DNA from: a virus
Virus record (IMG/VR): IMGVR_UViG_3300037454_000319
Length of the DNA: 64,000 nt
Reading direction: 5' to 3' (one strand)
This document shows positions 13,718 to 46,430 of this stretch, one piece after another; positions within the stretch are counted from its first letter, which is position 1; each line of letters opens with the position of its first letter. A program made the position numbers and the translations under genes. The notes under the pieces were generated by a model that was given only the letters and a program-made list of their open reading frames with translations, was not told the origin of the DNA and searched no databases.

Positions 13718-14848
13718 TTAATCCTCCTTTGGCAGTTCTATCTTAAATAATGAAATGAACTTAGATGTGGTCATATCAGTAAATAAAGAATCTAAACGAC
13801 CGTCAAAAGCAGCGAAGTAAAGTGCCGCAGCCTTGTTCTTTCCGAAGTCCTGCGCGAACCACTTACGAGCAGTACGGTCGCCCTCTCCAAATGGGTGCTC
13901 CTTCTTCCATAATGATACAACTCTCTTTATTTCATATACTAATATATCTATTGCTTCAAGCTGTAATCTAACCTTAGTAAATGTATCCTCATACTCAGGA
14001 AAGTATGATAAAAACTCTGCGTCATCATTCTCACGAATTAAATCTACAATACGCTCTAAAGTAATTACTCCGTTGTTCTTTGCCTTGTGCATTTGGAAGT
14101 AAAGTAAAGTCTTAATCTTAACACGCTCATAGTTCTTGTCACATACAACAATACCTTCATGACCTTCAGGCATATTTGCGACAAGCTGACGATATTCTGC
14201 TTCATCTTCAAGGAGATATGTCTTAGGACAGCTAACTCCTAATTCTTTTGCAATTTGCCGAGCCGCAGGAGTTTCGTGAAGGTCTTCAGATAGCATATTA
14301 CGTGCAGAAAGAAGATATACCTTAGTCTCAGGATAGTCAATAACAACCTTGTTATAAGGAGATACAAGCTCGAAAGTTAAGCAATAAGGCTCATAACGGT
14401 TACCCACGAAGGCGGATAGAGGAAGTACAGACTCGAAGAGGTCTCCGAAAGTCTTATAAGGACCTACGCCGTTAAGCTCAGCCTTGAAAGCATCTATCTT
14501 GCCGTTTGTTGATATATGCCACTTGCCGCGAGCAAACCATACAGACATTATAGAGCCATCTATCTTCTCAGATGCAACGGCAGTATCCCAGTCTATATGA
14601 GCTGCATAGGACTCGTCTATATTGAAGAACTTCTTGAACGCATAGCGAACTACCTTGAAGTCATCACGAGCATCAAGGATAAGACCACGAGCCTCGCGGC
14701 AAATTTCCTCGTTAAAGTCAGAGTCTATCTGGCTATACTTGAAAAGAACGAAGCCGTCGTCCTCAGAAATTTTTAAGTTGTAAGGCGCATCAGCTAAAAG
14801 TTCACGCCAGTTATCATGTGCAAGGATAAACTCCTGTATTTTTAACAT
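13718..14848 (-). CDS. ATP-dependent RNA ligase, T4 Rnl1-like
   Basis: nucleotidyltransferase motif I EKIDGS (KxDG); ~375 aa like T4 Rnl1; genome rich in tRNA and other RNA-repair genes. Confidence 0.55.
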   Translation of the reverse strand: MLKIQEFILAHDNWRELLADAPYNLKISEDDGFVLFKYSQIDSDFNEEICREARGLILDARDDFKVVRYAFKKFFNIDESYAAHIDWDTAVASEKIDGSIMSVWFARGKWHISTNGKIDAFKAELNGVGPYKTFGDLFESVLPLSAFVGNRYEPYCLTFELVSPYNKVVIDYPETKVYLLSARNMLSEDLHETPAARQIAKELGVSCPKTYLLEDEAEYRQLVANMPEGHEGIVVCDKNYERVKIKTLLYFQMHKAKNNGVITLERIVDLIRENDDAEFLSYFPEYEDTFTKVRLQLEAIDILVYEIKRVVSLWKKEHPFGEGDRTARKWFAQDFGKNKAAALYFAAFDGRLDSLFTDMTTSKFISLFKIELPKED

Positions 14849-14849
14849 T

Positions 14850-15092
14850 TTATTTCCTCACTTTCTTATCAACTATTTTTTTACTAACAGTTATCCGTGC
14901 ATTATAAAATCTGTTACCACCCTCTTTTTTGCAATCCGCATAAGCTTTTTCAATTATACGATATGCTTCTATATCAAGAAAATTATTTTCCTTATAATAG
15001 CTTTCAACATACTGCCAAGCTTTTTCAATTGTTGAAAATACATCTGTAGCATAGGTATCACAATTAGAGAACTGTACTATCCAAACTTCCAT
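14850..15092 (-). CDS. hypothetical protein
   Basis: ORF. Confidence 0.45.
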   Translation of the reverse strand: MEVWIVQFSNCDTYATDVFSTIEKAWQYVESYYKENNFLDIEAYRIIEKAYADCKKEGGNRFYNARITVSKKIVDKKVRK

Positions 15093-15098
15093 TTTATA

Positions 15099-15383
15099 TT
15101 ACTCCTCTCCAACAACAACCCAAAACTTTTTCTTACCCCACTTTAACCAAAAGCAATCAGGCTGAGTAAGTGGTTCACAAAGCTTAGGCTGATTTCTCTT
15201 TACTTCACTAATAGATTTGACTACACCAAGCTCTTTTAAAATCTTGGCTGGTATACGTTCATTGGTAAATAAGGTAAAAGCTTTCTCAAACATGATTTCA
15301 TTTCCCGAAGGATTTGAAATACAACACACCTCATGCCACGGAACAAGTGGTTTACCAATGACGATATTAATAACATCACTCAT
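15099..15383 (-). CDS. hypothetical protein
   Basis: ORF. Confidence 0.45.
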   Translation of the reverse strand: MSDVINIVIGKPLVPWHEVCCISNPSGNEIMFEKAFTLFTNERIPAKILKELGVVKSISEVKRNQPKLCEPLTQPDCFWLKWGKKKFWVVVGEE

Positions 15384-15596
15384 TTATTTATTCTTCTCCA
15401 TTGGTCTCTTATAAGAAAACACAAAATCATAGCACTCTGGACACTGACATCTTCTTTGTCTTACTAAATGACCTTGCTTGTCCCAAAAATCGGGAAATTT
15501 ATCGCACTCTTTATCAAGAGCAATAAATTCACAACCACAGTGAGTGCACTTAAATTCTATTTCAGTATATCTCTTACCATGTTTAGTTACCTTCAT
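15384..15596 (-). CDS. zinc-ribbon protein (start MKVTKHGK, RBS AAGGAGAA)
   Basis: CxxC...CxxC. Confidence 0.45.
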   Translation of the reverse strand: MKVTKHGKRYTEIEFKCTHCGCEFIALDKECDKFPDFWDKQGHLVRQRRCQCPECYDFVFSYKRPMEKNK

Positions 15597-15597
15597 T

Positions 15598-15846
15598 TTA
15601 ATTCTCCTTAAAACCCCAAGCGTTACGCTTCTCAGCATAGACTATAATGCCATCAGAAAGCTCCACGCTCATCTCATCATCAGCGATAATTGCAAAGTCA
15701 TACATCTCCTTGAATGCCGCCCACTTCTCAGAATCGGACATATCATCTCCTGCTATTCTATTAATGAGATAGCACATTGCGGCTTCCTTAGTTTTATAAA
15801 CGTCAAAAACATTTCCATCGTTATCGCTTATAACCCAGCACTCCAT
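15598..15846 (-). CDS. hypothetical protein
   Basis: ORF. Confidence 0.45.
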   Translation of the reverse strand: MECWVISDNDGNVFDVYKTKEAAMCYLINRIAGDDMSDSEKWAAFKEMYDFAIIADDEMSVELSDGIIVYAEKRNAWGFKEN

Positions 15847-15847
15847 T

Positions 15848-24278: not shown

Positions 24279-25211
24279 TTATCTATTCTTAAGCATATCT
24301 CTTACATATGTCATTGTAAGTGAACCACAAACCTTACCGAAGTTCTCGCAAGCGGTAACTACCTCTGGCTCCTCCTTACGGCAGTCCTCATACATCATCT
24401 TAGGAAGAACCTTTGCAATCGCACTCATGTCATGCTCGTCCCAATCAGGTCTGAGTTGCCCCTCGTCCACAAGCTTCTGGAGACACTTCTCAACTCTACG
24501 CTCAGTAGCGATTGATGCGACATACTGTCTCTCAGCCTCTCTCTTCTTAAGCTCCTCGGGGTCAACAGGCTTCTTATGGTCATGATGAACCTCAGAAAAC
24601 TTCTCTGCGACAATCTTGAGGTATGTAGGAAGTCTATTGCTCTTGTCATCAAGTCTATCCTGAGACTTAATTACAATACCCTCACCGCAAGGCTCTGCTC
24701 CGAGCATTGTTTGACCAACAAGCTCATATACAGTATCCCAACCTCTGAACTCGCCTGTGTAGAAAACAGGTACGAAACGGATTACTTGCTGTGTAAGCTG
24801 TGCCGCCTTCTCAAGTCCATTAAAGATTGCAAGTGTGTCGATATGTGGAAGGTATTGCTCAGTCTCAGTATCCCATACGTCGAACATATAGAAGTTCTTG
24901 TACTTGTCATCAGGATAACGGATAGTATGCTTTGTAAGCCACTCACCGAAGATTACGTATCTGCCGTGCTGAGTGAGCATGTCAATTTGAGATACCTTAA
25001 GTTGCTGTGCCCAATTCCAAAAACCATTGAGGTTATTGCTCTCATTGAGCTGGTTCTTACGAGAAAACGCAAGAACAGTATTTGTGTCGGGGTCGTATGT
25101 GAAGGAAGCGTTTGAACCGTCAACCTTCTCAGTAATTGTTATCTGCTCTCCAATGGTAAAAGCAACATCGTACTTCTCCTTGAAGCGCTCAATATCCATG
25201 TAATGCTTCAT
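24279..25211 (-). CDS. nucleotidyltransferase ligase, Rnl2-like RNA ligase (or ATP-dependent DNA ligase)
   Basis: motifs I EKVDGSN, III YVIFGEWL, IV EGIVIK, V YLKIVAEK. Confidence 0.55.
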   Translation of the reverse strand: MKHYMDIERFKEKYDVAFTIGEQITITEKVDGSNASFTYDPDTNTVLAFSRKNQLNESNNLNGFWNWAQQLKVSQIDMLTQHGRYVIFGEWLTKHTIRYPDDKYKNFYMFDVWDTETEQYLPHIDTLAIFNGLEKAAQLTQQVIRFVPVFYTGEFRGWDTVYELVGQTMLGAEPCGEGIVIKSQDRLDDKSNRLPTYLKIVAEKFSEVHHDHKKPVDPEELKKREAERQYVASIATERRVEKCLQKLVDEGQLRPDWDEHDMSAIAKVLPKMMYEDCRKEEPEVVTACENFGKVCGSLTMTYVRDMLKNR

Positions 25212-27674: not shown

Positions 27675-28892
27675 TTACTTGTTCTGATTAAAAGCGTTCA
27701 TAAGCATGAATGTGCTAAGAAAATCATTGTCGCCGCCCTTATTCATAAGCAGGAATGGAAGCATGTTATTACCCTCGAAGGCTGTGCCGCCACCCATCAT
27801 AGCAAGCATAAGCATTGCATTGTCATCGAACTTGCCATCACCGAGCATAAGGAATGGGAGTATATTACCAAAAGGATTGTCAGCATTTGCAGTTGCTGCG
27901 CCGCCAAACATATCCATTGGAGTTACAATCTTAGTATAGAAGTCAAAGCCGAAGATAGACTTTCTTGGAACGAATGTCTTAACCTGAGTTGTATAAGGCT
28001 CAACTGCAACTATCTGCTCATCGCTGATTTCCTTAACAACAAGTGGCTTATTACCGTCTGGAGAAAGGATTACATCACCGACAGCTATCTTAGTCTTAGA
28101 AACAGGCATAGCAAATACAGGAATATCCATTACCAAATCTGATACATTGGTAAGCGAGCCGTCATTTTCATATACATTATATGTACCATCGGCACCAAGA
28201 AATGCGATACCGTTAAATGAATACTTGATAGTAGAACTGTCATACTTACCAAATAATACATTACCCATAATCTTCTTCATATTCATATTATTTTCCTCCT
28301 CAGAAATTTCATTTGTATTAACTCTTATTAATCTGCCGTTTTCAAAATGTATTAAAGGACTTTCTGCCATTTTACGCAATTCTTCTAAGTTCTTCTCTGA
28401 TACTTTTATTTCTACATTTCGTGGAGAGAAGTCCATTAATTTCTCGCCATTATGTCCATAAGCTATTCCAGATTTAAGCTCAAGCTCAGCAAATACATCG
28501 CCAACTGTTTTCATTCCCTCAGTATCTTTAGGAATACAATCTGTATTTCTTCCAACTTTTGTCCAGCTTGTGATAATTCTCCATGCGCCCGTTGCTGCAA
28601 TATGGGACATCTCAGTAGGCATTTTCCCTATATCGACATCACGCCATATATTTTCAATGTAAATATAATCTTCATCTTCTGGTATTTTTGTCTCTGTTCC
28701 ATAAGTTAATTTATAAGGTTCTACTAAATCCTGCTTGACATTCCGAACGTAGTGGCGAGTAAGTATATCACCAATTTCAATTTTTAAATCCTTGCTGTCT
28801 CTAACCTCATAAATATAGCGTTTACGATTAGCAACTGAACTCATAGATGGAGCTACAGAGTCTACAAAAACTACACTAATAAAACTATGCAT
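27675..28892 (-). CDS. hypothetical protein (405 aa)
   Basis: ORF. Confidence 0.55.
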   Translation of the reverse strand: MHSFISVVFVDSVAPSMSSVANRKRYIYEVRDSKDLKIEIGDILTRHYVRNVKQDLVEPYKLTYGTETKIPEDEDYIYIENIWRDVDIGKMPTEMSHIAATGAWRIITSWTKVGRNTDCIPKDTEGMKTVGDVFAELELKSGIAYGHNGEKLMDFSPRNVEIKVSEKNLEELRKMAESPLIHFENGRLIRVNTNEISEEENNMNMKKIMGNVLFGKYDSSTIKYSFNGIAFLGADGTYNVYENDGSLTNVSDLVMDIPVFAMPVSKTKIAVGDVILSPDGNKPLVVKEISDEQIVAVEPYTTQVKTFVPRKSIFGFDFYTKIVTPMDMFGGAATANADNPFGNILPFLMLGDGKFDDNAMLMLAMMGGGTAFEGNNMLPFLLMNKGGDNDFLSTFMLMNAFNQNK

Positions 28893-31616: not shown

Positions 31617-33065
31617 TCACTTCCAAGAGAACTCTGGACGGCTAAGTATTTCTACCATAGCCTGATAAGCGTTCTTCTCAATGAGTTCAAGCAAGAACTT
31701 GAAAGGACCTACACCAGCACCACTACAGTAACTGATGTTATCTGAAGTTGTAGCCATATAGTTATCCTGACGAGCATCAACATTCCAACTTACGACCTTA
31801 GTCTCTGGAAGACCAGCTTCACGGAGTCTTCTGTTCCACTTACCAACAATAGACTCGCCCTGATTACGGCCACAGTCATAGTCAAACTGACCATCTGAAA
31901 TTACAACAAGAGCCTTTGGTACTTCTCTTGTTCTAACTGCAACCTCATAAATCTTTGCGAAAGCCTTATCGAGGTCTGTATTGTAACCAACACCGACACT
32001 CTTAGCTCTATTTACGCAACGAGTGATGTCCCAGCTATCCTCAATCTTGACAAAGTAAGGGTCACGAGAATAAGTCATATACAAACCATGATATGCACCC
32101 TTATTACGCTGAGCGAAATAAGTTGCAAGACCAATAGATGTAGCCATAGGCTTACCAGTCATAGACTCAGAAACATCTGCCATAACAACAACGTCAAAGT
32201 CGCCCTTTACATAGTTAGGAAGTTTGTTCCACTGAGCCTTATCAAGAACACTATTTGTATCATTCTTATAAAGTATATTGTATACTATATCATATGGATA
32301 AAGAGTTGACGCTTTTACATCAGCTTCACCCTTATCAAGGGCCGCCATGTAAGCTGAATATCTTTCATTGTCATTCTTATTAAATGCCTTAGAATATCTA
32401 CGTGCAGCAATTGATGGAACAGTCTCGTAGTTAATATTACTCCAGTTCTTAGCACTCATATCTACCTCAACAACGTCAAGATACTTACGAAGCTTAGAAA
32501 GAGTCTTACGATATGTTCTTGGCTTAATACCAGCTACCTTACAAATACGACGTGCGCGAGCGCAAGTCTCCTTAGATGAAGTGTTAATAGAAGGCATCCA
32601 CTTAGCAAGAAGTGAAATAGGAGCTTTTGCGGCTACACCTTCGATATCCTTCATAAGCTGTGCAATAACAAAGTTAATTACATCATCGCCGATAGAAGTA
32701 TCAAGCAACTCAAAAAGGTCATCATATCTACCAACATTTACAAGAGTCTGGAAATTACGCTTTACCTTCTCAGGGTTAAGACGTACAAGCTCCTTCAAAA
32801 GGATACGACCGATACGTCTCTCACCAAGACCAGCATTACGAATATCACGAGCATAAAGAATGAGGTTGTCTGCCAACTCTTCATTCTCAAGACGAGCATC
32901 TCTCCAGTCCATTATTATATCCTGCTCATTACGATTTCTCATGCCACCTATCTTAGCATAAAAATCAAGAAGTGCGCCGCCATTTGTAGAACGATATGCT
33001 ACAGCACCATTCTCAGTATAAGTCTCATTAGCCATTGTCTTACATACATTTGCAAAATTACTCAT
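31617..33065 (-). CDS. DUF2828/TROVE-like N-terminal domain + C-terminal von Willebrand A (vWA) domain protein
   Basis: vWA MIDAS DVVVMADVSESMTG...ALVVISDGQ; N-term TENGAVAYRSTNGGALLDFYAKIGG. Confidence 0.55.
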   Translation of the reverse strand: MSNFANVCKTMANETYTENGAVAYRSTNGGALLDFYAKIGGMRNRNEQDIIMDWRDARLENEELADNLILYARDIRNAGLGERRIGRILLKELVRLNPEKVKRNFQTLVNVGRYDDLFELLDTSIGDDVINFVIAQLMKDIEGVAAKAPISLLAKWMPSINTSSKETCARARRICKVAGIKPRTYRKTLSKLRKYLDVVEVDMSAKNWSNINYETVPSIAARRYSKAFNKNDNERYSAYMAALDKGEADVKASTLYPYDIVYNILYKNDTNSVLDKAQWNKLPNYVKGDFDVVVMADVSESMTGKPMATSIGLATYFAQRNKGAYHGLYMTYSRDPYFVKIEDSWDITRCVNRAKSVGVGYNTDLDKAFAKIYEVAVRTREVPKALVVISDGQFDYDCGRNQGESIVGKWNRRLREAGLPETKVVSWNVDARQDNYMATTSDNISYCSGAGVGPFKFLLELIEKNAYQAMVEILSRPEFSWK

Positions 33066-33107: not shown

Positions 33108-33153
33108 TTTATCTTACTTATATATTATACTATAAAATATTAAAAAAGTCAAA
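33108..33153 (-). promoter_or_regulatory. conserved promoter copy 19
   Basis: -10 33124-33129, -35 33147-33152. Confidence 0.65.
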
Positions 33154-33343
33154 TTTTTGGGGGGAAAATAAGGGCAACGTCGCAACGCCACCCTTACTCG
33201 GCTACTGCCGATAGTGCTTATCTCCCTGCACGGGCTCGCTATCCTTACGAATAGCTATCCTTTTAACGTCTTGATGGACGAGCGTGGATTTACCACATAC
33301 GCTACCACTTAATTTTTTATAGACGGAAATTAAGAAAACCAAC

Positions 33344-33436
33344 TGGCGCCTACTCTCGGACTCGAACCGAGACACCGCTTGCGCGACTACTACTGGTTTT
33401 CAAGACCAGTCCCTTACCAGTTAGGGTTAAGTAGGC
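33344..33436 (-). tRNA. tRNA-Ser (TGA), long variable arm
   Basis: 93 nt, loop CTTGAAA. Confidence 0.6.
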
Positions 33437-33457
33437 AAAAACAAGATACGTTTTTTC

Positions 33458-33488
33458 TCGTGCCTCTACCAATTGGGCTACTCCCCGA
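33458..33488 (-). pseudogene. tRNA 5'-half fragment (acceptor CGGGGAG + D-arm GCCCAATTGGTAGAGGC)
   Basis: D-arm identical to tRNA 34495..34571; no anticodon or T arm follows. Confidence 0.5.
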
Positions 33489-33491
33489 TAT

Positions 33492-33568
33492 GTTGCCCAT
33501 GACGGACTCGAACCATTATTCTCCCTACTTTCGTAGGGCGTAAACACCATGTATACTACATAGGCAAT
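33492..33568 (-). tRNA. atypical tRNA-like gene (acceptor GCCTATG/CATGGGC, TA at 8-9, GNRA hairpin CCCTAC-GAAA-GTAGGG, T-loop GGTTCGAGTCC)
   Basis: cloverleaf-like fold but anticodon loop CGAAAGT lacks U33. Confidence 0.3.
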
Positions 33569-33569
33569 C

Positions 33570-33615
33570 TGGTCGGGGAGGATGGGATTCGAACCCACAC
33601 TCTCGTGCTCCTAAA
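33570..33615 (-). pseudogene. tRNA 3'-half fragment (TAG loop, T-arm GTGGGTTCGAATCCCAT, acceptor CTCCCCG-A-CCA)
   Basis: 3' acceptor strand perfectly complementary (8 nt) to 5' fragment 33458-33488 located downstream: permuted order. Confidence 0.45.
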
Positions 33616-33644
33616 CGCAATAGATAGTTGCTGACGTATCTTTA

Positions 33645-33720
33645 TGGTGCCGAGGGGGAGACTCGAACTCCCAACGCGAGGCTCTTCAGGCCTCCGCTCT
33701 ACCGTTGGAGCTACCTCGGC
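33645..33720 (-). tRNA. tRNA-Phe (GAA) copy 2
   Basis: loop CTGAAGA. Confidence 0.55.
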
Positions 33721-33744
33721 ATTATCAAGACAGTTATACTTATA

Positions 33745-33805
33745 ACTCTACCATTGAGCTACGCGGCACTCTCGTACCACGGTGGGATTCGAACCCACAT
33801 CCTCC
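33745..33805 (-). pseudogene. tRNA fragments: 3'-like (GTGGGTTCGAATCCCAC) followed by 5'-like (GCCGCGTAGCTCAATGGTAGAG)
   Basis: partial arms only, no complete cloverleaf. Confidence 0.35.
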
Positions 33806-33859
33806 TTCAGACAAAAAGAAAAAGTTAAATGTTTTAAATGTTTTGCTGAACTGTCTTAT

Positions 33860-33936
33860 TGGTCGGAGCGGCGGGATTCGAACCCGCAAGAAACTGTTTT
33901 TGAGACAGCCGTGTCTGCCAATTGCACCACGCTCCG
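33860..33936 (-). tRNA. class-I (short variable arm) tRNA with anticodon CAA (Leu codon UUG)
   Basis: acceptor CGGAGCG/CGCTCCG perfect, A73, loop CTCAAAA, 5-nt variable loop. Confidence 0.5.
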
Positions 33937-33939
33937 ATT

Positions 33940-34015
33940 TGGGTGGAAAGATGAGACTCGAACTCACACCTTCATGGGCCACAACCATGCGCTCTACCGT
34001 TAAGCTACTCACCAC
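33940..34015 (-). tRNA. tRNA-His (GTG)
   Basis: loop TTGTGGC, C73. Confidence 0.5.
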
Positions 34016-34170
34016 ATCAATAAGACATACTATTGCGAACTTGCCGTATGTCAGGGCGGCTCATTTAATTTCTCCTCGTTAGGGATGTGCCGCGATGCCA
34101 TAACCGCGGAGTTGTCATATTGATTCTCCCAAACCAATAGGACGTAATAAAAATGCAATTGCCTTTCGGC

Positions 34171-34244
34171 TGGTCGGCACAGGAAGATTCGAACTTCCGC
34201 TCCTTTCTTGTAAGGAAAGGTGACTCCCTTTATCGTATGCGCCG
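34171..34244 (-). tRNA. tRNA-Val (TAC)?
   Basis: loop CTTACAA; atypical D-arm. Confidence 0.4.
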
Positions 34245-34271
34245 ATTAACAAGACTCTTTATACCTTTACG

Positions 34272-34345
34272 GTCCGGAAGAGGGATTCGAACCCTCATAT
34301 GTACGATTTTAGGTCGTATGACTTAGCCACTTTGTCTATTCTGGA
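34272..34345 (-). tRNA. class-I tRNA with anticodon TAA (Leu codon UUA), C33
   Basis: stem TACGA/TCGTA, loop CCTAAAA. Confidence 0.4.
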
Positions 34346-34494
34346 AAGAAATGTTGCTGAAGAGTCTTTAATTTGGTTCGGGTATGCTTATCGGAGTCAA
34401 GTACTCGCAGTTCCTCTTTCGAGGTATTTTCTTCGGAGTAAAGACCTTAAGGTTCGCGTAACCTCTTGTGCCCTAACCCATATCCGAAACCCGA

Positions 34495-34571
34495 TGGTGC
34501 CGATAGAGGGATTCGAACCCACACTGTCCAGTTCCTAAGACTGGTGCCTCTACCAATTGGGCTATGTCGGC
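34495..34571 (-). tRNA. class-I tRNA with anticodon TAG; D-arm and anticodon arm resemble bacterial tRNA-Leu(TAG) but long variable arm absent
   Basis: GCCCAATTGGTAGAGGC + CCAGTCTTAGGAACTGG, A73, 77 nt. Confidence 0.5.
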
Positions 34572-34594
34572 ATTAATGTCGGACAAACCGACAT

Positions 34595-34846
34595 TTATTT
34601 TGCTAATACTACTATTAGTGGAATGTGTCCTGTTTTATCATATGCCATAGCTAAAGGATATTTTTCAATTAGTTCTTTGTTATTTACTACTATCTGAGTC
34701 ATCACCATAGCAATACTTTCTTTTAATCCATCTTCATTGCAGAAGTAAGGACCGCCAGAATCTCCGCCATGGTCTACAGCATCTATAATAGTGCTATTAT
34801 AGGCTTTTATAAAATTAAGAAGGTCATAACTATCTTTAAAAACCAT
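34595..34846 (-). CDS. hypothetical protein
   Basis: ORF. Confidence 0.45.
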   Translation of the reverse strand: MVFKDSYDLLNFIKAYNSTIIDAVDHGGDSGGPYFCNEDGLKESIAMVMTQIVVNNKELIEKYPLAMAYDKTGHIPLIVVLAK

Positions 34847-34857
34847 AATATTCTCCT

Positions 34858-35412
34858 TTACTTAGAAAGCATATTTGCGATACCAGAAGCCGCATAGCTG
34901 TCTGGCTTAATACGAGACTCAAAACCCATGCTATCAATATAGCCACAGATTTCTGTAATCATCTCATGTGTCTTGCCGCGCTTACCAATGTCAGCGTGAA
35001 TAGCAAAACCAAGCTGTTCCTTATTGTGCATCTCGTCAAGGTCAATATCATAATCAATTAACTCATATGCAAGAGCATCATAGAAACCTGTTGCATTTTG
35101 AATAGAACGGAATGTCTCTTCATAAATTTTTGTCTTTAAAACAGATATTCTTGGAATATCCTCTACCTTGTAAAAGAAAATGCCGCCATCACCAACACGG
35201 CAGACAGCAATTACTTCTACCATTCTTGTATACTTGTGGTTCTGAGAGTCAGTTCCTATTGTAATATCATATTCGGCATCAGGCTTATCTGCAATAAATT
35301 TTGCAATAATCTTAATAACCTCATCAAACTTTACCTTAGTCTTTGCTCTGTTGCCACGAGTAAATATCTTGTCGGCAATCACGTCAATCTCTCCTTTTCT
35401 AACTATATTCAA
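34858..35412 (-). CDS. hypothetical protein, possible RNase H-like fold (motif ITIGTDSQ)
   Basis: ORF; weak motif only. Confidence 0.4.
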   Translation of the reverse strand: MNIVRKGEIDVIADKIFTRGNRAKTKVKFDEVIKIIAKFIADKPDAEYDITIGTDSQNHKYTRMVEVIAVCRVGDGGIFFYKVEDIPRISVLKTKIYEETFRSIQNATGFYDALAYELIDYDIDLDEMHNKEQLGFAIHADIGKRGKTHEMITEICGYIDSMGFESRIKPDSYAASGIANMLSK

Positions 35413-35546
35413 GACGATTTTATAAATTGGGCTCTTCTTAATGGAAAAAAAAGAAATTCAATTTGAAAAGTTTGCAGAAATCGTCTTAGTGGTGATAATA
35501 CGTGCCGCGGCACCACAGACCGCTATATGTGGTCGCACGTATTCTC

Positions 35547-35632
35547 TGGTCGGCTCGGTGGGACTCGAACCCACATGCCCTTACGGGCACCAGAACCTTA
35601 ATCTGGCGCGTATACCAATTCCGCCACGAGCC
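35547..35632 (-). tRNA. tRNA-Leu (AAG), class II with Leu-type variable arm; A34 unusual for bacteria
   Basis: 86 nt, loop TTAAGGT, variable arm GCCCGTAAGGGCA. Confidence 0.5.
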
Positions 35633-35711
35633 GTTGGTTGCTGATAAAGTCCAGCTTACTACATATCTGTCTTTAATAAACGAGGACAACATTTGTTCTT
35701 ACACTCGTAAG

Positions 35712-35787
35712 TGGTCGGAGATGCGGGACTCGAACCCACAGCCTCTGCGTCCCAAGCGCAGCCGTCTACCAAATTGGCGTAATCCCC
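35712..35787 (-). tRNA. tRNA-Pro (TGG)
   Basis: loop CTTGGGA. Confidence 0.6.
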
Positions 35788-35796
35788 GATTTTAAA

Positions 35797-35872
35797 TGGT
35801 GGACCTGAAGGGAGTCGAACCCTCGACCTCCTGCTTGCAGGGCAGGCGCTCTCCCAATTGAGCTACAGGCCC
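35797..35872 (-). tRNA. tRNA-Ala (TGC) with G3-U70
   Basis: acceptor GGGCCTG/CAGGTCC, loop CCTGCAA. Confidence 0.55.
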
Positions 35873-36490
35873 ATTAATTCTTGACAACTTTATAAAAAGA
35901 ACATTGTCGGTTTTTATTCGCCGTACTCATACAACGCTGCACATTATTCAGTCACAGTGGCGATAAGTCTGAGCCCCAGAGCCGTCGCTCTGAAACTTCT
36001 TACCGCGAGTCCGAAGACTCCAAGCACTGAGGGGAATCTTTCTACCCCCAACTTTCACCCATCATTCAGAATTTGATAATTATAATACTTTCTATCATCA
36101 AAACCAAATCTGAGCCTTGGGCTACTCGTACCACCATCGGGTTTCCTTTCCATTTCTGAAAAGGTTATAGGCTCAACCCCATTGCTTTGCATTCCCTGTA
36201 TTTGCTCACATCTTGCGGACGTGGTCTGCAGGGTTCTTCCCATCTGGGCGTCTATTGTTGGGGCAACCAGTTTAGGTGTACCATTGCTTCACGTTGCACC
36301 TGTGCCACTACTTCTTCATTGGTGGCTGGTATACCACCTGCCCATATCCCCTTTCGGTTCAATGGCCGCTCCCGTTTTGAGGTATCCCTCTGACGAAAAC
36401 GAGACAGTTCCATAGTGCCCATGCAGAGTTGATTAGACCCTCATTTTAACACATGGTTACAACATACTTTTTATGAAGTTGTCAAGATAA
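35873..36490 (-). ncRNA. ~620-nt GC-rich (~48%) noncoding island between tRNA-Ala and a tRNA fragment; possible TTGACA-N17-TTGTAA promoter near 36440-36470
   Basis: no ORF >62 aa in any frame; many GC hairpins; adjacent HNH endonuclease. Confidence 0.3.
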
Positions 36491-36491
36491 G

Positions 36492-36560
36492 TGGTCGGCG
36501 AGATGGGATTCGAACCCACACTGAATGGATTTTCGTACTACTCTATATCGCTATAGCCGC
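36492..36560 (-). pseudogene. tRNA 3'-fragment / pseudo-tRNA (GTGTGGGTTCGAATCCCATCTCGCCGACCA)
   Basis: good T-arm and CCA but 5' half not tRNA-like. Confidence 0.4.
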
Positions 36561-36608
36561 ATAATGCGTTGTAGTCTGGACTTAGTCTTTACCATATTCA
36601 TATAGAAC

Positions 36609-37124
36609 TTAGGTAGCTGGTGTAAAGTCTCTACACATAGATTTTAGACGTACATTTCTACCACGATAAGTTTCTGTAAGAGCATGACAATTTGGGCATA
36701 AATAACGAAGATTAGATAATTCATTATTAGTATTATCTCCATCAATATGGTCAATTTCTAATGAAATTATCCCACCTTGCCAAGAACCATCACAACCACA
36801 ATTAATACATTTATAATCAAGAAGTTTATATCTTTCAACATATCCTCTTAATCCTTTTTGGCTAATTGGGCTGTTTTTAATGAAGACTTCTTCTAATGTA
36901 TATTTCTCTTTACGTTTAAGTGAAGCATTATCATCTTTTGTAAGACCTTTACTCCAACCTTGACCTTTAAAATGAGAAACATCAATTCCAAATTCTTCAA
37001 TTTTGTTCTTTAGAGTTTTTTGTGCTCCACCGCCTTGTGCACGTCCCGATTTTCTCAGAACTTCTGCATAAGAAAAGCTTTCTGCACAAACTTTCTCTAA
37101 CCACTCTTTAGTATATTTCTGCAT
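36609..37124 (-). CDS. HNH homing endonuclease
   Basis: C-terminal EIDHIDGDNTNNELSNLRYLCPNCHALTE HNH motif; sits in tRNA region. Confidence 0.75.
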   Translation of the reverse strand: MQKYTKEWLEKVCAESFSYAEVLRKSGRAQGGGAQKTLKNKIEEFGIDVSHFKGQGWSKGLTKDDNASLKRKEKYTLEEVFIKNSPISQKGLRGYVERYKLLDYKCINCGCDGSWQGGIISLEIDHIDGDNTNNELSNLRYLCPNCHALTETYRGRNVRLKSMCRDFTPAT

Positions 37125-37420
37125 TTTATCACCTCAATTATAAGGTAGGAAGACGCAGAAATTACTCAAAACTTTTCGTCTGCCTAAAATCCTTGCACGG
37201 CGTTCTGTGTTCGCCTTCGCCGTTTTAGCCAGCTTCTACTCTCAGAGTTTTCCTCTGAGGCACTCTCTACTATTGAAGTAGCATTACATAGTAACAGAAC
37301 ACATCAAAGTCCATTGCCTCTGCCTGTTGCGCTACTCGCCGTTTGGTTGCCATAAGGTTCGCAAGCCACACATCAACTTTTTATTAAAGTGAGAGTTTCA
37401 TTTGTTCTAAAACTCACTAT

Positions 37421-37494
37421 TGGTTGCGGCCCAAGGATTCGAACCAAGAACTTCTGGTAATGAGCCAGATATTATGCCTTTTCACTAAACCGCA
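37421..37494 (-). tRNA. tRNA (CAT) copy 3, weak T-stem
   Basis: loop CTCATTA, acceptor TGCGGTT/GGCCGCA. Confidence 0.4.
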
Positions 37495-37510
37495 ATATAT
37501 TCTCTTTAAC

Positions 37511-37552
37511 TTTTCTAAAATTATTATATCATAATTTCTAAAAAAAGTCAAA
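37511..37552 (-). promoter_or_regulatory. conserved promoter copy 20
   Basis: -10 37523-37528, -35 37546-37551. Confidence 0.7.
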
Positions 37553-38290
37553 TTTTCTTTTGTCTAAGTCATTTCGTAAGCACTCTCACCACGTGAAGGT
37601 AGACTTAATTGAGAGTATTTTTTGTTAATGTCTGGTGCCGCCACATCATCCTGCACACAGGAGACAGGGTACTCGAACCCCTCAACAACCTTAACAAGGG
37701 AATTTCAACCCATCTTGACAATTATAAAGCCGCCAAGCGAAACGGCTTTGGCATTTTATCCTCTTAATCGAGAGGCGCTTACCATCGCGCGGTCATACCT
37801 TCTGTATGAGCCTTTGTAATGTCGTCAGGTTCCCACACTATCGCAGTAAACTCGCCGCTTAACCATCAAGTTTAAGGATTATAATATATTCAAACTTGAA
37901 AAATATATACTTCATTCTTCCTTTTTACATCGTCAGCAGTAGATGTGTAGCATATTATCGAAATGCCATCACGCCGCTTATCCAACAGCGGTAGTAGAAC
38001 CGTATCGTAGGCAAACGCCGCTTAACCAACCGCGGTAGTAGGAAAAGAGAAACAGTTTATACTGCCATCACACAGTCGGGTAGGTCTGTGATGGGTACTA
38101 CCCAATTAGGGCTTTTAGAGTTTGGTACGGTCTCAAAAGATAAACCCATAGAACTCATACCGTGGCAATTTAGTGTCATCGTCTCGCACGACGAGAGTTT
38201 TAACGTCTTTACTTTGACAGCGCCGCAACCAGCAACGTTGCACTTGTTTTGCATTTCATTTTGCAGGTCTGTGAAAACAAGAAACCTTTG
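37553..38290 (-). ncRNA. ~740-nt noncoding region upstream of tRNA-Gly with tandem hairpin repeats (acgccgcttaaccaaccgcggtagtag x2-3 at 37850-38045)
   Basis: no credible ORF; direct repeats 37971-38002 and 38014-38045 each form CCGC...GCGG hairpins. Confidence 0.3.
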
Positions 38291-38294
38291 ACCT

Positions 38295-38369
38295 TGGAGC
38301 GGAATACGAGACTCGAACTCGCAACACCTGCTTGGAAGGCAAGGATGTTCCCAATTACACCAATTCCGC
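38295..38369 (-). tRNA. tRNA-Gly (TCC)
   Basis: loop CTTCCAA. Confidence 0.6.
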
Positions 38370-38449
38370 ATTAACAAGACACTTATAAATAGCTACTTTT
38401 GATTAACCGTCAAATGCTTTTTTCTATAAGAAATTTGCTGAATGTGTCT

Positions 38450-38490
38450 TTCAATATAAATATTATATCATAATTTATTTTAAAAGTCAA
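38450..38490 (-). promoter_or_regulatory. conserved promoter copy 21 (spacer 16)
   Basis: -10 38462-38467, -35 38484-38489. Confidence 0.6.
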
Positions 38491-38504
38491 ATTTTCGACT
38501 TCTA

Positions 38505-38790
38505 AATTTCTTTAAAACCCTTGCTTGTACATCGAATCCTCGTATTATATCCACAGTCACATCGTGATTTACTCCCACACAAGAGGGCTACCATGGAGAA
38601 GGGGCACGCCCCGAGGTGGGCGGCAATTACAGAGAGCGCTATATTGGCTGATATAACGCCCAAAGGAACTCTGTCTACACGTGGTAGATGAGCTATCGCA
38701 TTTCTGCGACCCCGCACAGCGGGTAGCGGTGTCGGATACTCCGCCTTAAGAGATGAACTACATATCATCGTAGAGGTTATAATAACCTCT
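38505..38790 (-). ncRNA. ~285-nt GC-rich noncoding region downstream of promoter 21 and upstream of tRNA-Ser (candidate structured RNA / leader)
   Basis: ORF 38502..38768 has implausible composition; hairpins ggggcacgcccc, cccgcacagcggg. Confidence 0.3.
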
Positions 38791-38884
38791 TGGCGCGGAG
38801 AGAGGGACTCGAACCCTCGCGGCGGTTATTAGCCGCCCTACTCCCTTAGCAGGGGAGCCTCGTCACCAACTTGAGTACCTCCGC
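38791..38884 (-). tRNA. tRNA-Ser (GCT), long variable arm
   Basis: 94 nt, loop CTGCTAA. Confidence 0.6.
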
Positions 38885-38985
38885 ATTAATATCCGCTGAG
38901 CATCTTATTGGAACGCTTTCACCTTGCGAGACCTCTATTGTTTATTTGCTGGCAGAATTTGAACCATTAACCATAGCGAATATCT

Positions 38986-39058
38986 GGTGGGACTGGGAAG
39001 ATTCGAACTTCCGTACGACCGTTATGAGCGGTCAGTCCTGCCATTAGACGACAGTCCC
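38986..39058 (-). tRNA. tRNA-Met/Ile2 (CAT) copy 4
   Basis: loop CTCATAA. Confidence 0.55.
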
Positions 39059-39113
39059 ATAAAGAAAGGAAAGGGGCATACTTTACAAATGGCTATGCCA
39101 GACCAGAATCAGT

Positions 39114-39187
39114 TGGCTTCTGCGAAGGGAGTCGAACCCCTATTCTAAGAGCCAAAATCTTATGTCCTACCATTAGACGACGCAGAA
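39114..39187 (-). tRNA. tRNA-Gln (TTG)
   Basis: acceptor TTCTGCG/CGCAGAA, loop TTTTGGC. Confidence 0.5.
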
Positions 39188-40870: not shown

Positions 40871-41788
40871 TTAGTGCGCTGCTCTATCTGCTTCGTTAAG
40901 TAATGCAAGGTGTGCCATAAATTCTGCATCAAAACGCTGAGCAAGTTTCTCTACATAACCAGACTTATAGTGGTCCATATGGTGTTGAATTAAGTTTGCA
41001 ATGTATAAGCTCTGCCACTGGTCTGATGCATGAGATAAGTACATATATGCACTAACGTTTTCGTGATTGTAGTAGTGAGCTTCTTCTGTCGGCTCATTAC
41101 GTGCATTATGGAATACCTTACAATAAGGCTTTCCAAGGTCATGATAACGTGCCGCCACCTGAATCCACCAGAACTCTGCCCCTGGCATACGGTTATTGAG
41201 CTTAAGTTCCTGACGCTTTCTCTTTATAATGAAGTCCTCTGCAAGAACCATGTGGTGTCCGATTGTCTCAGAATGGTGGTGATTATCATGGGAAATTTTC
41301 ATTGCCTTAGCAAGTTCATCTTCCAAATATTCATTATCTAATGAGTTACCGTACATAACGATTTCATCCCAACCCTCAGACTCATGTGGCACTTCGAAGT
41401 TTCTCAACATACGGTCAAGAGCATAATCAGGAACTTGACGCTCACGACCTGCATTCTGCTCCTTCACAACCTCGAAAGGCGGCACAACAAGTACGCAAAT
41501 CTTTTGAACATTAGGAATATGTGAAAGTTCCTTTAATAAGTTAATACGACGCTTAGCATTAATGTTTGTTGCATCATAGAATACATCTGCACCCGCCTTT
41601 AAAAATTCTCTTGTTCTCTTTAACATTATGTCAAATACTTCGCCATTATGCTCTTGGTCATTTACATCTCCGAATACTTCTTCACGAATTGCATCTGAAG
41701 AAACATACTCAGCATATAAATAATTTTCAGCATAAACCGTGGACTTACCAGCTCCTGCAATGCCAACAGCCATATAAAATCTTGCCAT
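40871..41788 (-). CDS. polynucleotide 5'-kinase (P-loop) fused to HD phosphohydrolase domain; putative RNA-repair kinase-phosphatase
   Basis: Walker A GIAGAGKST; HD motif HSETIGHHM...HDLGK. Confidence 0.6.
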   Translation of the reverse strand: MARFYMAVGIAGAGKSTVYAENYLYAEYVSSDAIREEVFGDVNDQEHNGEVFDIMLKRTREFLKAGADVFYDATNINAKRRINLLKELSHIPNVQKICVLVVPPFEVVKEQNAGRERQVPDYALDRMLRNFEVPHESEGWDEIVMYGNSLDNEYLEDELAKAMKISHDNHHHSETIGHHMVLAEDFIIKRKRQELKLNNRMPGAEFWWIQVAARYHDLGKPYCKVFHNARNEPTEEAHYYNHENVSAYMYLSHASDQWQSLYIANLIQHHMDHYKSGYVEKLAQRFDAEFMAHLALLNEADRAAH

Positions 41789-44523: not shown

Positions 44524-44771
44524 TAATTGGTTCTAAAACCAAATTCATAATGACACGCTTTGCACTCATAACAAGTATCTCCTGCTCTTGTGCTCCATTT
44601 TATCATCTTTGTTTCAGTTTTATAAGGTGGATGAACTTCATTAAGAGTTGCAAGAACTTCACGGATTTCTTTTCCATTTAACTGCCACTCTTCACCTATA
44701 TGAAATCTTTTTGAGTGCTGTCCTTTTTCTATAAAAAGAACTTCTAATTCATCTTTTGTAATTGCTATCAT
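44484..44771 (-). CDS. zinc-ribbon protein
   Basis: CYECKAC...CANCGAL. Confidence 0.4.
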   Translation of the reverse strand: MIAITKDELEVLFIEKGQHSKRFHIGEEWQLNGKEIREVLATLNEVHPPYKTETKMIKWSTRAGDTCYECKACHYEFGFRTNYCANCGALFTGVE

Positions 44772-45259
44772 TCTAATTCTCCTTCTCCTAAGTAATACTG
44801 CATACCGCAGAACTTACAAGTTAATGTCTGAAAATCTATTGTGCCGCCACAGCATGAGCACTGTAATGGTTTAAGTTCCTTGTATTCAATACGAGGTTTT
44901 CTGCCGCCCTGTACTCTTTTAATGAAATCTTCAATAAGTTCTATTAAAAAAGTTTCTTCAAACTGCTGTCTGGAAGGCTCTATGGCTATATAATAACCAA
45001 TTATTTTATCATCGCAGTCTATACAAAATTCACTTCTACCATAATAACGGTCAAAATAATAATGAACAAGAACCTCTCTTTTAATTCTCGTTTCTATTGC
45101 TTTTTTAAGCATATTCTGTATTCGTTCTATTGCATCACACCAATCATCATATGGCTTATTAAAATAGTAATAGTCATACTTAGGTACTTTAATTTGAATT
45201 ATTTCATGTCCGTCCTTATGATAAGATGTACTTTCCCACATACGGAAATCTCCCTTCAT
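44768..45259 (-). CDS. hypothetical protein with zinc ribbons
   Basis: ORF. Confidence 0.45.
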   Translation of the reverse strand: MKGDFRMWESTSYHKDGHEIIQIKVPKYDYYYFNKPYDDWCDAIERIQNMLKKAIETRIKREVLVHYYFDRYYGRSEFCIDCDDKIIGYYIAIEPSRQQFEETFLIELIEDFIKRVQGGRKPRIEYKELKPLQCSCCGGTIDFQTLTCKFCGMQYYLGEGELE

Positions 45260-45263
45260 TTAA

Positions 45264-45305
45264 TTTTCTAATAAAATTATACTATAAAATAAAAAAAAAG
45301 TCAAG
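45264..45305 (-). promoter_or_regulatory. conserved promoter copy 25
   Basis: -10 45276-45281, -35 45299-45304. Confidence 0.7.
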
Positions 45306-45322
45306 GATTTTTAATCCTCGAC
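45300..45322 (-). terminator. terminator gtcaaggatt-ttt-aatcctcgac fused to promoter 25
   Basis: stem + T9. Confidence 0.6.
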
Positions 45323-45634
45323 TTTTTCCTCAACTTCCTCTTCGGGCTGAACAAGGTCCATATACATCTCGTCATCAACGATATTCGCCATACGAATAAC
45401 TGCGTCATCAGTAACGTCAATTCTTATTGGCTTACCTACGAGATTCTCCCAGTAGCCTGCTTCTGTCATTGCTAAAATCATTGCAATAGCCTGTACATTA
45501 TCTATCGGAACTGGACCTATCTGATACTGTTTATCCTTTGTTCCAACCAATATGCTTACCCCAACATATGAGTTTTTCTCTTCTGCGTCGGTTACCTTAC
45601 CAAGGTATGTACCTACAATCTTTGCATTAATCAT
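45311..45634 (-). CDS. hypothetical protein
   Basis: ORF. Confidence 0.45.
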   Translation of the reverse strand: MINAKIVGTYLGKVTDAEEKNSYVGVSILVGTKDKQYQIGPVPIDNVQAIAMILAMTEAGYWENLVGKPIRIDVTDDAVIRMANIVDDEMYMDLVQPEEEVEEKVED

Positions 45635-45716
45635 AAAACAATTCCTCCTTCATAATTTGATTTAGTCTTATATCTTCAGTTATATTACAAACTGCTCCGA
45701 GATATAGCTCGTCCTT

Positions 45717-46430
45717 TCATGTGTTTGGCTTATCAAGTGCTATTAATAATACATCATTAAATAAAATGCGTGTATCTGCCGCCATCATATCTTTATGATA
45801 ATGACCGCAAAAATGCTTTTGATAAATAGCCTTATCCAAAATTCTGTCGAGCCTTTTATCAGAAATTGTCGGTTCAAAGCCAAGATAATTACAAACCTTT
45901 GAACCTCCAGTATGACTGAACACAAAATCTACTGTGCCGCCAGCCCTCTCCAAATTGATTTCGGCGACGGCAATGTTCTCTTCGGTAATCTGCTCCTGCT
46001 CCCACCAAGACTCGTGGGGCCAACGATAACGCTTACCATTAACGAAGATGTCATGTGACTCTGCTCCATTAACAACAAGGCACTTCTGACCGCAAAGGTC
46101 ATATACCTTGCCACTTATTGCATAGAAAATAGAGTCAGCAACTTGATAACACATCTCGCCACCGAAAGTTGTTGTTGGAAGGTTCTCAATTCTATCATAG
46201 TTTTCGTGATTACCAAGTACACAAAAAGTAGTCCAAGGCTTAGAATTAAGCCAATCTATCCACCACTGTTCTCTTGGTGTACTCTTATCCTTAGACCAGA
46301 TAAGACCTGCGTCACCCATTATAACGAGTATATCATCTTTAGTTAAACCATCACATTTAAAATGTGCAGTATTAAGTTTATCAATATTAATGCTCTGGTG
46401 TATATCACCAGTTACGAATAATCTTCTCAT
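45717..46430 (-). CDS. calcineurin-like metallophosphoesterase
   Basis: GDIHQ...GDAG...GNHE motifs. Confidence 0.6.
   Translation of the reverse strand: MRRLFVTGDIHQSINIDKLNTAHFKCDGLTKDDILVIMGDAGLIWSKDKSTPREQWWIDWLNSKPWTTFCVLGNHENYDRIENLPTTTFGGEMCYQVADSIFYAISGKVYDLCGQKCLVVNGAESHDIFVNGKRYRWPHESWWEQEQITEENIAVAEINLERAGGTVDFVFSHTGGSKVCNYLGFEPTISDKRLDRILDKAIYQKHFCGHYHKDMMAADTRILFNDVLLIALDKPNT

Follow-up and report, generated by a model that had tools for sequence, protein, structure and literature searches.

We analysed 64,000 nt of the IMG/VR record IMGVR_UViG_3300037454_000319 (hereafter the window), which is part of an uncultured phage of about 159 kb. The window encodes candidate enzymes of an RNA break-repair pathway: an Rnl1-type and an Rnl2-type RNA ligase, a polynucleotide kinase fused to an HD phosphoesterase (kinase-HD) and a RlaP-type nucleotidyltransferase (NTase). 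Judged from their sequences, these four proteins form a coherent repair core. The phage also carries 37 ordinary tRNA genes that together serve all 20 amino acids, and it is likely to protect translation in two ways, by replacing tRNAs and by repairing them. Defences that target tRNA (PrrC, RloC, PARIS, Cas13 and Schlafen-type nucleases) are now regarded as widespread, and phage tRNA sets and RNA-repair enzymes are their presumed counter-measures. The window provides a well-documented case of such a kit outside the jumbo phages and the T4 group.

A first-pass annotation had drawn six open reading frames (ORFs) of the window into an RNA-repair toolkit: the four core genes, a macro domain gene and a gene for a calcineurin-type metallophosphoesterase (MPE). 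All six are real ORFs with the boundaries it assigned, on the minus strand like every gene discussed here, and its domain calls hold. Its inventory missed a Ro-like protein, two Y-RNA-like RNAs, a ROOL RNA and a 405-amino-acid protein. Its count of more than 35 tRNA genes is borne out by 38 ARAGORN calls, comprising the 37 ordinary tRNAs and one aberrant element with a two-base 'anticodon'; Rfam confirms 37 of the 38, the uncalled one being the aberrant element. The genes lie in two clusters, one of 22 tRNAs (1667..7169) and one of 15 tRNAs plus the aberrant element, non-coding RNAs and an HNH gene (33344..39187).

Enzymes of the proposed repair core

Kinase-HD (40871..41788, 305 amino acids) joins an N-terminal polynucleotide 5'-OH kinase (residues 1-150) to a C-terminal HD phosphoesterase (residues 165-305). 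The kinase matches Pfam AAA_33, and the HD match of the single sequence is weak (19 bits, under the Pfam cut-off). An alignment of 35 kinase-HD sequences shows invariant kinase residues (G14, K15, D32, R35, R115 and R117) and an invariant HD metal site (H179, H216-D217, H242, H270 and D301). The profile of this family, which has over 1,000 proteins, matches the kinase of Clostridium thermocellum Pnkp (2.6e-21), PSTK, T4 Pnkp and Pnkp1, and its HD half matches a tRNA-processing enzyme of the 3WFO type at 1e-5. The fold is predicted with high confidence, and T4 Pnk and mammalian PNKP are among its matches. The protein has the features of a Pnkp-type kinase, namely a P-loop (GxxGxGK[ST]), catalytic Asp and Arg, an RxxxR-type phosphate clamp and a polynucleotide-kinase fold. 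Matches of the predicted model to PhnZ, phosphodiesterases and exopolyphosphatase confirm the HD fold. The AAA_33 match, the invariant HD residues and the predicted fold together bear out the earlier proposal that the kinase is fused to HD and not to a HAD/DxD phosphatase.

The gene directly upstream of kinase-HD is a 74-amino-acid ORF (41792-42016, minus strand) that matches Pfam NMN_transporter (3.3e-8). Over its C-terminal 52 residues it shares 92% identity with the ORF that occupies this position in a syntenic relative (locus L005), far above the conservation of its neighbours.

The Rnl1-type ATP-dependent RNA ligase (13718..14848, 376 amino acids) scores 55 bits against Pfam RNA_lig_T4_1, above the cut-off, and matches phrog_562 with an E value of 9e-42. 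It aligns with T4 Rnl1 (2C5U; E 7e-7) at R53, K72/F74, K95, E160, E231-G232 and K244/K246. The KxDG motif EKIDGS by which the gene had been recognized places K95 opposite T4 K99, and E160, E231-G232 and K244/K246 correspond to T4 E159, E227-G228 and K240/K242. As to a C-terminal domain specific to Rnl1, the phrog_562 alignment (residues 28-362 of 376) extends further than that to the NCBIfam model, which covers residues 43-317 at a score far under the equivalog cut-off.

The Rnl2-type ligase (24279..25211, 310 amino acids) matches Pfam RNA_ligase (PF09414, 96 bits) and, over residues 1-308, phrog_548 (E 4e-54). Residues 26-308 align to positions 29-318 of the 326 in the NCBIfam Rnl2 model (TIGR02307), so that the C-terminal domain is included. 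The sequence had been credited with ligase motifs I, III, IV and V. Motifs I, III, IIIa and IV are intact (EKVDGS, FGEW, FYMFDV and EGIVIK), but motif V reads K199-I-V201 and not K-x-K, the form in T4 Rnl2. This K-[IL]-V variant is found throughout the clade, including gp182 of the cultured Bacillus phage Tsamsa and metagenomic relatives. A conserved [EK][KE]F[SK]E follows it throughout the phage Rnl2-like clade. Profile searches assign the two ligases to RNA-ligase families, Rnl1 and Rnl2 respectively, and not to DNA-ligase families.

The NTase (28897..29739, 280 amino acids) is a Pol-beta nucleotidyltransferase and probably a divergent member of the RlaP family. On its own it scores 17.8 bits against RlaP (PF10127), under the cut-off of 23; within its family, 19 of 28 members match Pfam RlaP, the best at 1.1e-6, with no competing family. 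G38, S49, D50, D52, D85 and D88 are invariant. We found no RlaP structure in the PDB. The enzyme class proposed for this ORF stands, but the motif given for it, 'GS...DxD', is in fact LYGAQ-x10-SDFD.

We infer the activities and substrates of these enzymes, and the order of the repair steps, as follows. Kinase-HD would heal both ends of a broken RNA, its P-loop kinase adding a 5' phosphate and its HD domain removing a cyclic or 3' phosphate. Where a nucleotide has been lost, the RlaP-type NTase may add one or two nucleotides onto the 3'-OH; RlaP of Pseudomonas adds 1-2 NMP to the 3'-OH ends of damaged RNA (bioRxiv 10.64898/2025.12.29.696909). Sealing would then fall to the Rnl1-type ligase in single-stranded loops or to the Rnl2-type ligase at nicks in duplex RNA, probably with a ribonucleoprotein of the Ro-like protein and Y-RNA-like RNAs as an accessory.

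Gene linkage and known repair systems

The survey of gene neighbourhoods covered 159 viral loci with either the NTase or kinase-HD at their centre; they were searched with iterated hidden Markov models (HMMs) and dereplicated before counting. Kinase-HD is present in 25 of 38 NTase loci, in 18 of these within 300 bp of the NTase (median gap, 1 bp). The same 38 loci contain Rnl2 in 17 cases and either ligase in 23. Among 39 kinase-HD loci, 26 have Rnl1 or Rnl2, and Rnl1 lies within 2 kb of kinase-HD wherever the two co-occur (13/13). The corresponding figure for seven window genes used as controls is 0-26% of loci, and these genes hardly ever lie within 2 kb.

Compact versions of the cassette are found both in a cultured phage and in metagenomic contigs. 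The Tsamsa genes for Rnl1 (gp174) and kinase-HD (gp175) share a 4-bp overlap, and 3 kb downstream of them is Rnl2; in the 228-kb contig of locus L007, kinase-HD is followed directly by Rnl1. The 152-kb contig of L009 has, in this order and all within 9 kb, genes for the Ro-like protein, the NTase, a homologue of the 405-amino-acid protein, Rnl2 (61% identical to the window protein), MPE and kinase-HD, then one further gene and Rnl1. In L008 (168 kb) the NTase, macro and MPE genes are consecutive, and kinase-HD, a Ro-like gene, a cREC domain and Rnl1 lie within 17 kb. Locus L010 (313 kb) has Thg1 two genes from the NTase. In related contigs the same genes stand side by side, so the window has a dispersed version of a cassette that is compact as a rule. 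The toolkit had been described as dispersed, which is true of the window but not of its relatives.

The 405-amino-acid protein (27675..28892), which adjoins the NTase, matches no Pfam, PHROG or NCBIfam family. Its metagenomic homologues number at least 442, none of those listed having a Pfam domain, and its homologue adjoins the NTase in three of four co-occurring loci. Assignment of a fold failed, the AF2 model being of low confidence (mean pLDDT 60) and giving no significant match. Features seen in the model are a confidently predicted N-terminal beta domain, a disordered linker, barrels of the SH3/KOW-like type and a hydrophobic tail rich in Met and Gly.

In three loci the NTase adjoins a gene for a 717-730-residue fusion of kinase, Metallophos and Rnl1 domains (L020:5565-7718, L038:7780-9966 and L046:6148-8340). 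The iterated HMMs, which these proteins contaminated, had suggested kinase-HD-Rnl1 fusions; Pfam shows the middle domain to be Metallophos. Such trifunctional proteins resemble a phage version of the logic of bacterial Pnkp with a ligase of the Rnl1 type. The calcineurin fold therefore serves as a healing partner in the same gene pool.

The core was proposed as an end-healing and sealing set analogous to T4 Pnkp and Rnl1, and homology, catalytic residues, fold and gene neighbourhoods agree on this point. Like the window, T4 is a tRNA-encoding phage with a 5'-OH kinase fused to a 3'-end phosphoesterase, Rnl1, Rnl2 and a RlaP-family NTase (NrdC.11), and its Pnkp and Rnl1 answer the anticodon nuclease PrrC. 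The phosphoesterase is HD in the window, whereas it is a HAD/DxD phosphatase in T4; the window Rnl1 is only distantly related to that of T4; and the 37 tRNAs of the window are a full set, compared with eight in T4. To our knowledge, T4 has no Ro-like protein, Y-RNA-like RNAs or ROOL.

A parallel to the fusion itself is the characterized HD-Pnk of Runella slithyformis, an HD 2',3'-phosphoesterase and P-loop 5'-OH kinase (Munir & Shuman 2017, as cited in PMC6097658). According to that citing article, the Runella enzyme likewise has two domains and a ligase gene that is adjacent and overlapping, as in Tsamsa and L007. The domain order differs, being HD then kinase in Runella and kinase then HD in the window; the partner ligases in the window are of the Rnl1 and Rnl2 types, and the window lacks a Tpt1 or MTase-HIT partner. 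The HD-then-kinase order appears to be represented in phages by phrog_6931. C. thermocellum has Pnkp (kinase-metallophosphoesterase-ligase) and Hen1, whereas in the window the kinase is fused to HD, the MPE is stand-alone and not detectably related, and no Hen1 methyltransferase was seen.

The concept of such a kit is not new, because kits of large phages have been described and Tsamsa-like phages carry kinase-HD, Rnl1, Rnl2 and DUF2828. Jumbo phages combine many tRNAs with Rnl1 or Rnl2, a polynucleotide kinase with a phosphoesterase, RlaP, Macro and, together with a tRNA-like partner, a ROT/TROVE protein (Iyer et al. 2021, PMC7824862, section 3.4.9), an account that builds, as far as it is cited there, on Burroughs & Aravind 2016; in a few of them calcineurin-like and HD-like phosphoesterases replace HAD. 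The window inventory matches these kits. It differs in coming from an uncultured Firmicute-type phage under the ~200-kb range and in having HD where HAD is usual, and RtcB, 2H, KptA, a CCA-adding enzyme and Thg1 were not found. The closest cultured carriers are Tsamsa-like Bacillus siphophages (Joanripponvirinae), whose genomes are of similar size (160-170 kb) and whose proteins are 31-37% (kinase-HD, full length), 35-39% (Rnl2) and ~40% (DUF2828) identical to those of the window. There is no DNA-level similarity to Tsamsa, however, and BLAST links neither Rnl1 nor MPE to a 25-kb Tsamsa stretch; searches of the collection found no Tsamsa-like phage with the window MPE subfamily or the 405-amino-acid family. 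The 'different and expanded enzyme set' claimed for the window is therefore accurate relative to T4, but it had already been catalogued for large phages, and its kinase-HD, Rnl1, Rnl2 and DUF2828 members are also present in Tsamsa-like phages. The parts worth pursuing are the reversed-order kinase-HD family, the pairing of DUF2828 with Y-RNA-like RNAs and a ~720-nt RNA described below. The neighbourhood statistics name testable partners (the NTase, kinase-HD, Rnl1 or Rnl2, the Ro-like protein and the 405-amino-acid protein) and set the macro protein and MPE apart as doubtful.

Alternative roles of the enzymes

Several observations weigh against the tRNA-repair reading. The genes lie scattered across 33 kb of the window, with unrelated genes between them. 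The matches of the HD fold are generic, and a predicted model that gives such matches does not fix the substrate. The Rnl2 clade lacks the second motif V lysine, a residue essential in T4 Rnl2. As many as 35 of the 38 tRNAs encode their own 3' CCA, and no CCA-adding enzyme was found in the window. Finally, the best match of the macro protein is a DNA-directed enzyme, the DNA ADP-ribosyl glycohydrolase DarG, and the MPE is only loosely linked to kinase-HD, lying within 2 kb of it in 1 of 13 co-occurring loci.

The last two points lead to an alternative that has almost an even chance of being right, in which the repair pathway consists of Rnl1, Rnl2, kinase-HD and the NTase only, and the macro protein and MPE are independent counter-defence genes that merely share an early 'accessory' region with them. 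The macro protein would then reverse ADP-ribosylation of DNA or RNA by DarT-like or other host ADP-ribosyltransferases, and the MPE would break down a nucleotide signal or serve as a phosphatase. The macro protein (29804..30289, 161 amino acids from ATG, with an alternative TTG start at 30304) is of the DarG/TARG1/Poa1p type. It scores 24 bits against Pfam Macro and matches the macro region of the NCBIfam antitoxin_DarG model at 1.9e-15 (57 bits, far under the equivalog cut-off of 250). Glycine-rich ADP-ribose loops can be read from its sequence (GVMGGGLA and GCGLGGG). Its PDB matches are 5M3I (1.6e-8), 6LFU (1.2e-6), 5M31, 7OMU and 2FG1. Of these, 6LFU is an ADP-ribose-1''-phosphate phosphatase; 5M3I, 5M31 and 7OMU are DarG or DarTG structures.

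Two roles had been offered for this protein. Processing of ADP-ribose-1''-phosphate is not supported, as the 2'-phosphotransferase of the Tpt1/KptA type that it requires was not found among the ~85 window ORFs scanned; the same scan found no RtcB, 2H, CCA-adding enzyme, Thg1 or cREC, and an MTase-HIT partner is also absent from the window. Countering ADP-ribosylating defences fits better, because DarG is the best family match, and Iyer et al. place Macro among the counters of ADP-ribose-derived signals (PMC7824862). On sequence grounds, the macro protein is more likely an anti-ADP-ribosylation factor, which more probably removes ADP-ribose from nucleic acid than joins the ligation chemistry.

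The MPE (45717..46430, 237 amino acids) scores 48 bits against Pfam Metallophos. GD, GNH, H173 and GHxH are invariant in its family, most full-length members have an N-terminal D-x-H, and a block GA(D/E)SxD...R...WW..E is family-specific. BLAST detects no similarity to the Metallophos domain in the kinase-Metallophos-Rnl1 fusions of related phages (E 3.3), and the protein has no significant solved relative in the PDB, where the sole match is a weak one to the Listeria phosphoesterase Lmo2642 (E 0.011). At sequence level these results speak against a Pnkp-type enzyme, and with the loose linkage they leave unsupported the earlier suggestion that the MPE recalls bacterial Pnkp. It occurs in 33% of loci, barely above the synteny controls.

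On the other side, NTase, macro and MPE are consecutive in L008, MPE lies between Rnl2 and kinase-HD in L009, macro shows a modest linkage to the NTase (within 2 kb in five of seven co-occurring loci) and related phages have proteins in which a calcineurin-type domain is joined to kinase and Rnl1. The MPE may be a second 2',3'-cyclic or 3'-phosphoesterase of the pathway, and we regard its membership of the kit as uncertain.

Alternatively, the enzymes might mature the phage's own RNAs (transcripts of the tRNA arrays, ROOL, the ~720-nt RNA and the Y-RNA-like RNAs) rather than counter a defence, acting for example on 2',3'-cyclic phosphate ends that ribozymes or metal-independent nucleases produce. 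Two tRNA arrays and four non-coding RNAs lie interspersed with the genes of the kit. In gut phages that carry tRNA-linked HDV-like 'theta' ribozymes, an 'RNA ligase, DRB0094 family' ORF shows ~140-fold enrichment and CCA-adding enzymes ~250-fold (PMC10879173), and the Rnl2-type protein of the window matches the DRB0094 model (2.5e-10). HDV-like ribozymes leave 2',3'-cyclic phosphate ends, and L009, which carries the compact repair cassette, has a weak match to one of the Faecalibacterium prausnitzii type directly after a tRNA (L009:5951-6021; 31.6 bits, under the threshold, E 0.047). No ribozyme was found in either tRNA cluster of the window, however, even in permissive scans, and with their encoded CCA most of the tRNAs resemble ordinary RNase-processed genes. 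The closely related kits of Tsamsa-like phages have few RNAs of this kind in their vicinity, and the T4 precedent and the preference of RlaP for damaged RNA favour repair. We therefore consider maturation unlikely as the main role of the enzymes.

Action on DNA, with kinase-HD healing 5'-OH/3'-phosphate breaks and the ligases sealing nicks in DNA or hybrids, whether in replication or in response to damage by restriction, is highly improbable: the title cited in PMC6097658 calls Runella HD-Pnk a DNA/RNA end-healing enzyme and the DNA-repair enzyme PNKP is among the kinase fold matches, but the ligases belong to RNA-ligase and not DNA-ligase families, Tsamsa encodes a distinct ATP-dependent DNA ligase in that region (gp178), and RlaP, Thg1, the Ro-like protein and the Y-RNA-like RNAs are partners directed at RNA.

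Structured RNAs and neighbouring genes

Repair of tRNA, the reading that we prefer, would be accompanied in the window by a set of RNAs and an RNA-binding protein. The Ro-like protein (31617..33065, 482 amino acids) combines DUF2828 with a DUF7788/vWA domain and matches phrog_850, 'RNA-binding protein', at 1e-109. Its metal-ion-dependent adhesion site (MIDAS) is invariant (D297-x-S299-x-S301, T363 and D391). The vWA domain gives a PDB match at 7e-5. Matches to the PDB are limited to this domain, with none to Ro60 structures, which rules out calling the protein Ro60 by sequence; the label 'Ro-like' rests on depositors' annotations and PHROGs. The DUF2828 family is found in 708 phage records, some annotated as 'Ro-like RNA binding protein', including those of mycobacteriophages. 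Ro-like homologues are also part of the L008 and L009 cassettes.

Two Y-RNA-like elements lie upstream of the Ro-like gene. Element 1 (33721..33859, minus strand, 139 nt), ~700 nt from the gene, matches Rfam YrlA (RF02553) at 31.5 bits, against a threshold of 69, with an E value of 5e-5 on a 441-nt stretch. It folds into a 10-bp outer stem and a permuted tRNA-like module (T-arm, closed acceptor hairpin and D-arm) with a z-score of -4.4. Homologues in L006 (YrlA, 37.9 bits over the full model, also under the threshold), L015 and L107 lie 1.3-2.6 kb upstream of Ro-like genes. The element type has the ends UAAG(A/G)C...GUCUUG, and across four lineages the outer stem covaries beyond that core.

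Element 2 (33437..33644, minus strand), read directly from the sequence and found in this phage only, has a fold z-score of -3.3. An outer stem, a T-arm and an acceptor stem (CGGGGAG/CUCCCCG) surround a nested cloverleaf whose anticodon stem is capped by a GAAA tetraloop; this cloverleaf is the element that ARAGORN called 'tRNA-???' (33492-33566). We know of no description of a nested, anticodon-less cloverleaf of this kind. By eye, a terminator-like hairpin GGGTGGCGTTGCGACGTTGCCC with a T-rich run (window 33120-33200, minus strand) lies upstream of the Ro-like gene, and after it, just upstream of the gene, a near-consensus TTGACT-17-TATAAT promoter.

The arrangement resembles bacterial Rsr (Ro60)-YrlA, in which a vWA-containing Ro-like protein is also found beside RNAs with a stem-closed, circularly permuted tRNA-like module. 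It differs in that the window protein belongs to the DUF2828 family, the RNA falls under the YrlA threshold and its outer stem is unlike the model. The protein and the RNAs probably form a platform that binds damaged or misfolded RNA. Sub-threshold Y-RNA-like RNAs beside DUF2828 support the idea that this widespread family acts as a Ro-type ribonucleoprotein.

A full-length ROOL RNA (35889..36480, minus strand) is identified by Rfam RF03087 at 263 bits (gathering score, 99), with the match covering model positions 1-574 of 574. It sits between a tRNA-Ala gene and the HNH endonuclease gene of cluster 2; ROOL near phage tRNA islands is already known (PMC12286853). Searches with nhmmer found ROOL homologues ~8 kb from kinase-HD in seven loci (L136, L147-L150, L160 and L166). 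ROOL is not in the syntenic relatives L005 and L006, and we do not count it as a conserved part of the kit, though it is present in this other clade.

The second tRNA cluster also contains an ~800-nt gap (37495-38294) with no ORF over 97 amino acids, most of which is occupied by a candidate structured RNA of ~720 nt (37530..38260, minus strand). It has no match in Rfam even at E<=10, which sets it apart from GOLLD and other known large RNAs, and nothing similar was found in cultured phages. By nhmmer, it scores 216-268 bits in relatives that share no more than 50-64% identity in their proteins, and its most conserved block, of 37 nt, recurs in 18 metagenome contigs and in 4 from IMG/VR. From five close sequences, RNAalifold derives 123 pairs, of which 33 show compensatory changes. 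In an alignment of 15 sequences, a five-helix structure drawn by hand has 85.9% pairing, compared with 76.6% in shuffles, and its covariation score is 0.336 compared with 0.179 (0 of 500 shuffles reach either value); all slid registers drop to 30-52% paired.

Helices H2 and H3 interleave, as do H6 and H7, and pseudoknots are therefore indicated. The alignment suggests at least one pseudoknot and probably two, with H3 and H7 placed by eye and shifted between clades by MAFFT; RNAalifold on the 15-sequence core missed the crossing helix. This element appears to be a novel large structured RNA found in phage tRNA arrays. After it we noted by eye a TTGAC(T/A)-17-TATAAT similar to the promoter upstream of the Ro-like gene.

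The repair enzymes could also be the protein half of an RNA-centred 'tRNA maintenance island' together with the Ro-like protein and its Y-RNA-like RNAs, ROOL, the ~720-nt RNA and the 405-amino-acid protein. Such an island could capture, shield or present damaged tRNAs, or decoy host tRNA nucleases. We offer this as a speculation with a small chance of being correct; if true, it would give ROOL-class RNAs and the ~720-nt RNA their first functional context. The Y-RNA-like RNAs and the ~720-nt RNA, by-products of the analysis, may outweigh the kit itself in value.

The window has a G+C content of ~37% and a uniform strand bias. A metagenome contig of 158,845 bp (ENA ERZ27257203) and JGI sample 3300028887 both contain a kinase-HD protein identical to that of the window. 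No DNA-level relative was found among cultured phages; matches to Streptomyces phages are merely tRNA-sized, which excludes them as close annotated relatives. Genes for a dockerin-containing cell-wall hydrolase, a GH113 protein, a GT2 glycosyltransferase and a BspA-type LRR protein occupy 49373-56484 (minus strand), and an Oscillospirales phage is among the few carriers of the window-type MPE. Because of the dockerin, GH113 and BspA-type LRR genes and this Oscillospirales phage, the host is probably a gut or rumen Firmicute, and the same genes suggest a cellulosome-bearing member of the Clostridia/Oscillospirales.

Homing-endonuclease-like genes of the HNH and GIY-YIG types (36609-37124, 3947-4576 and 46581-47621, minus strand) lie within or beside the tRNA clusters and also adjoin MPE; the HNH gene of cluster 2 is that at 36609-37124. 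Among 50 small and medium-sized ORFs of the window, one matches tRNA-synt_2c, an alanyl-tRNA-synthetase family (8.8e-8); the ten largest unassigned ORFs do not include it. Two ORFs have matches to the restriction-alleviation family Lar (7.9e-5), a further counter-defence trait of the region.

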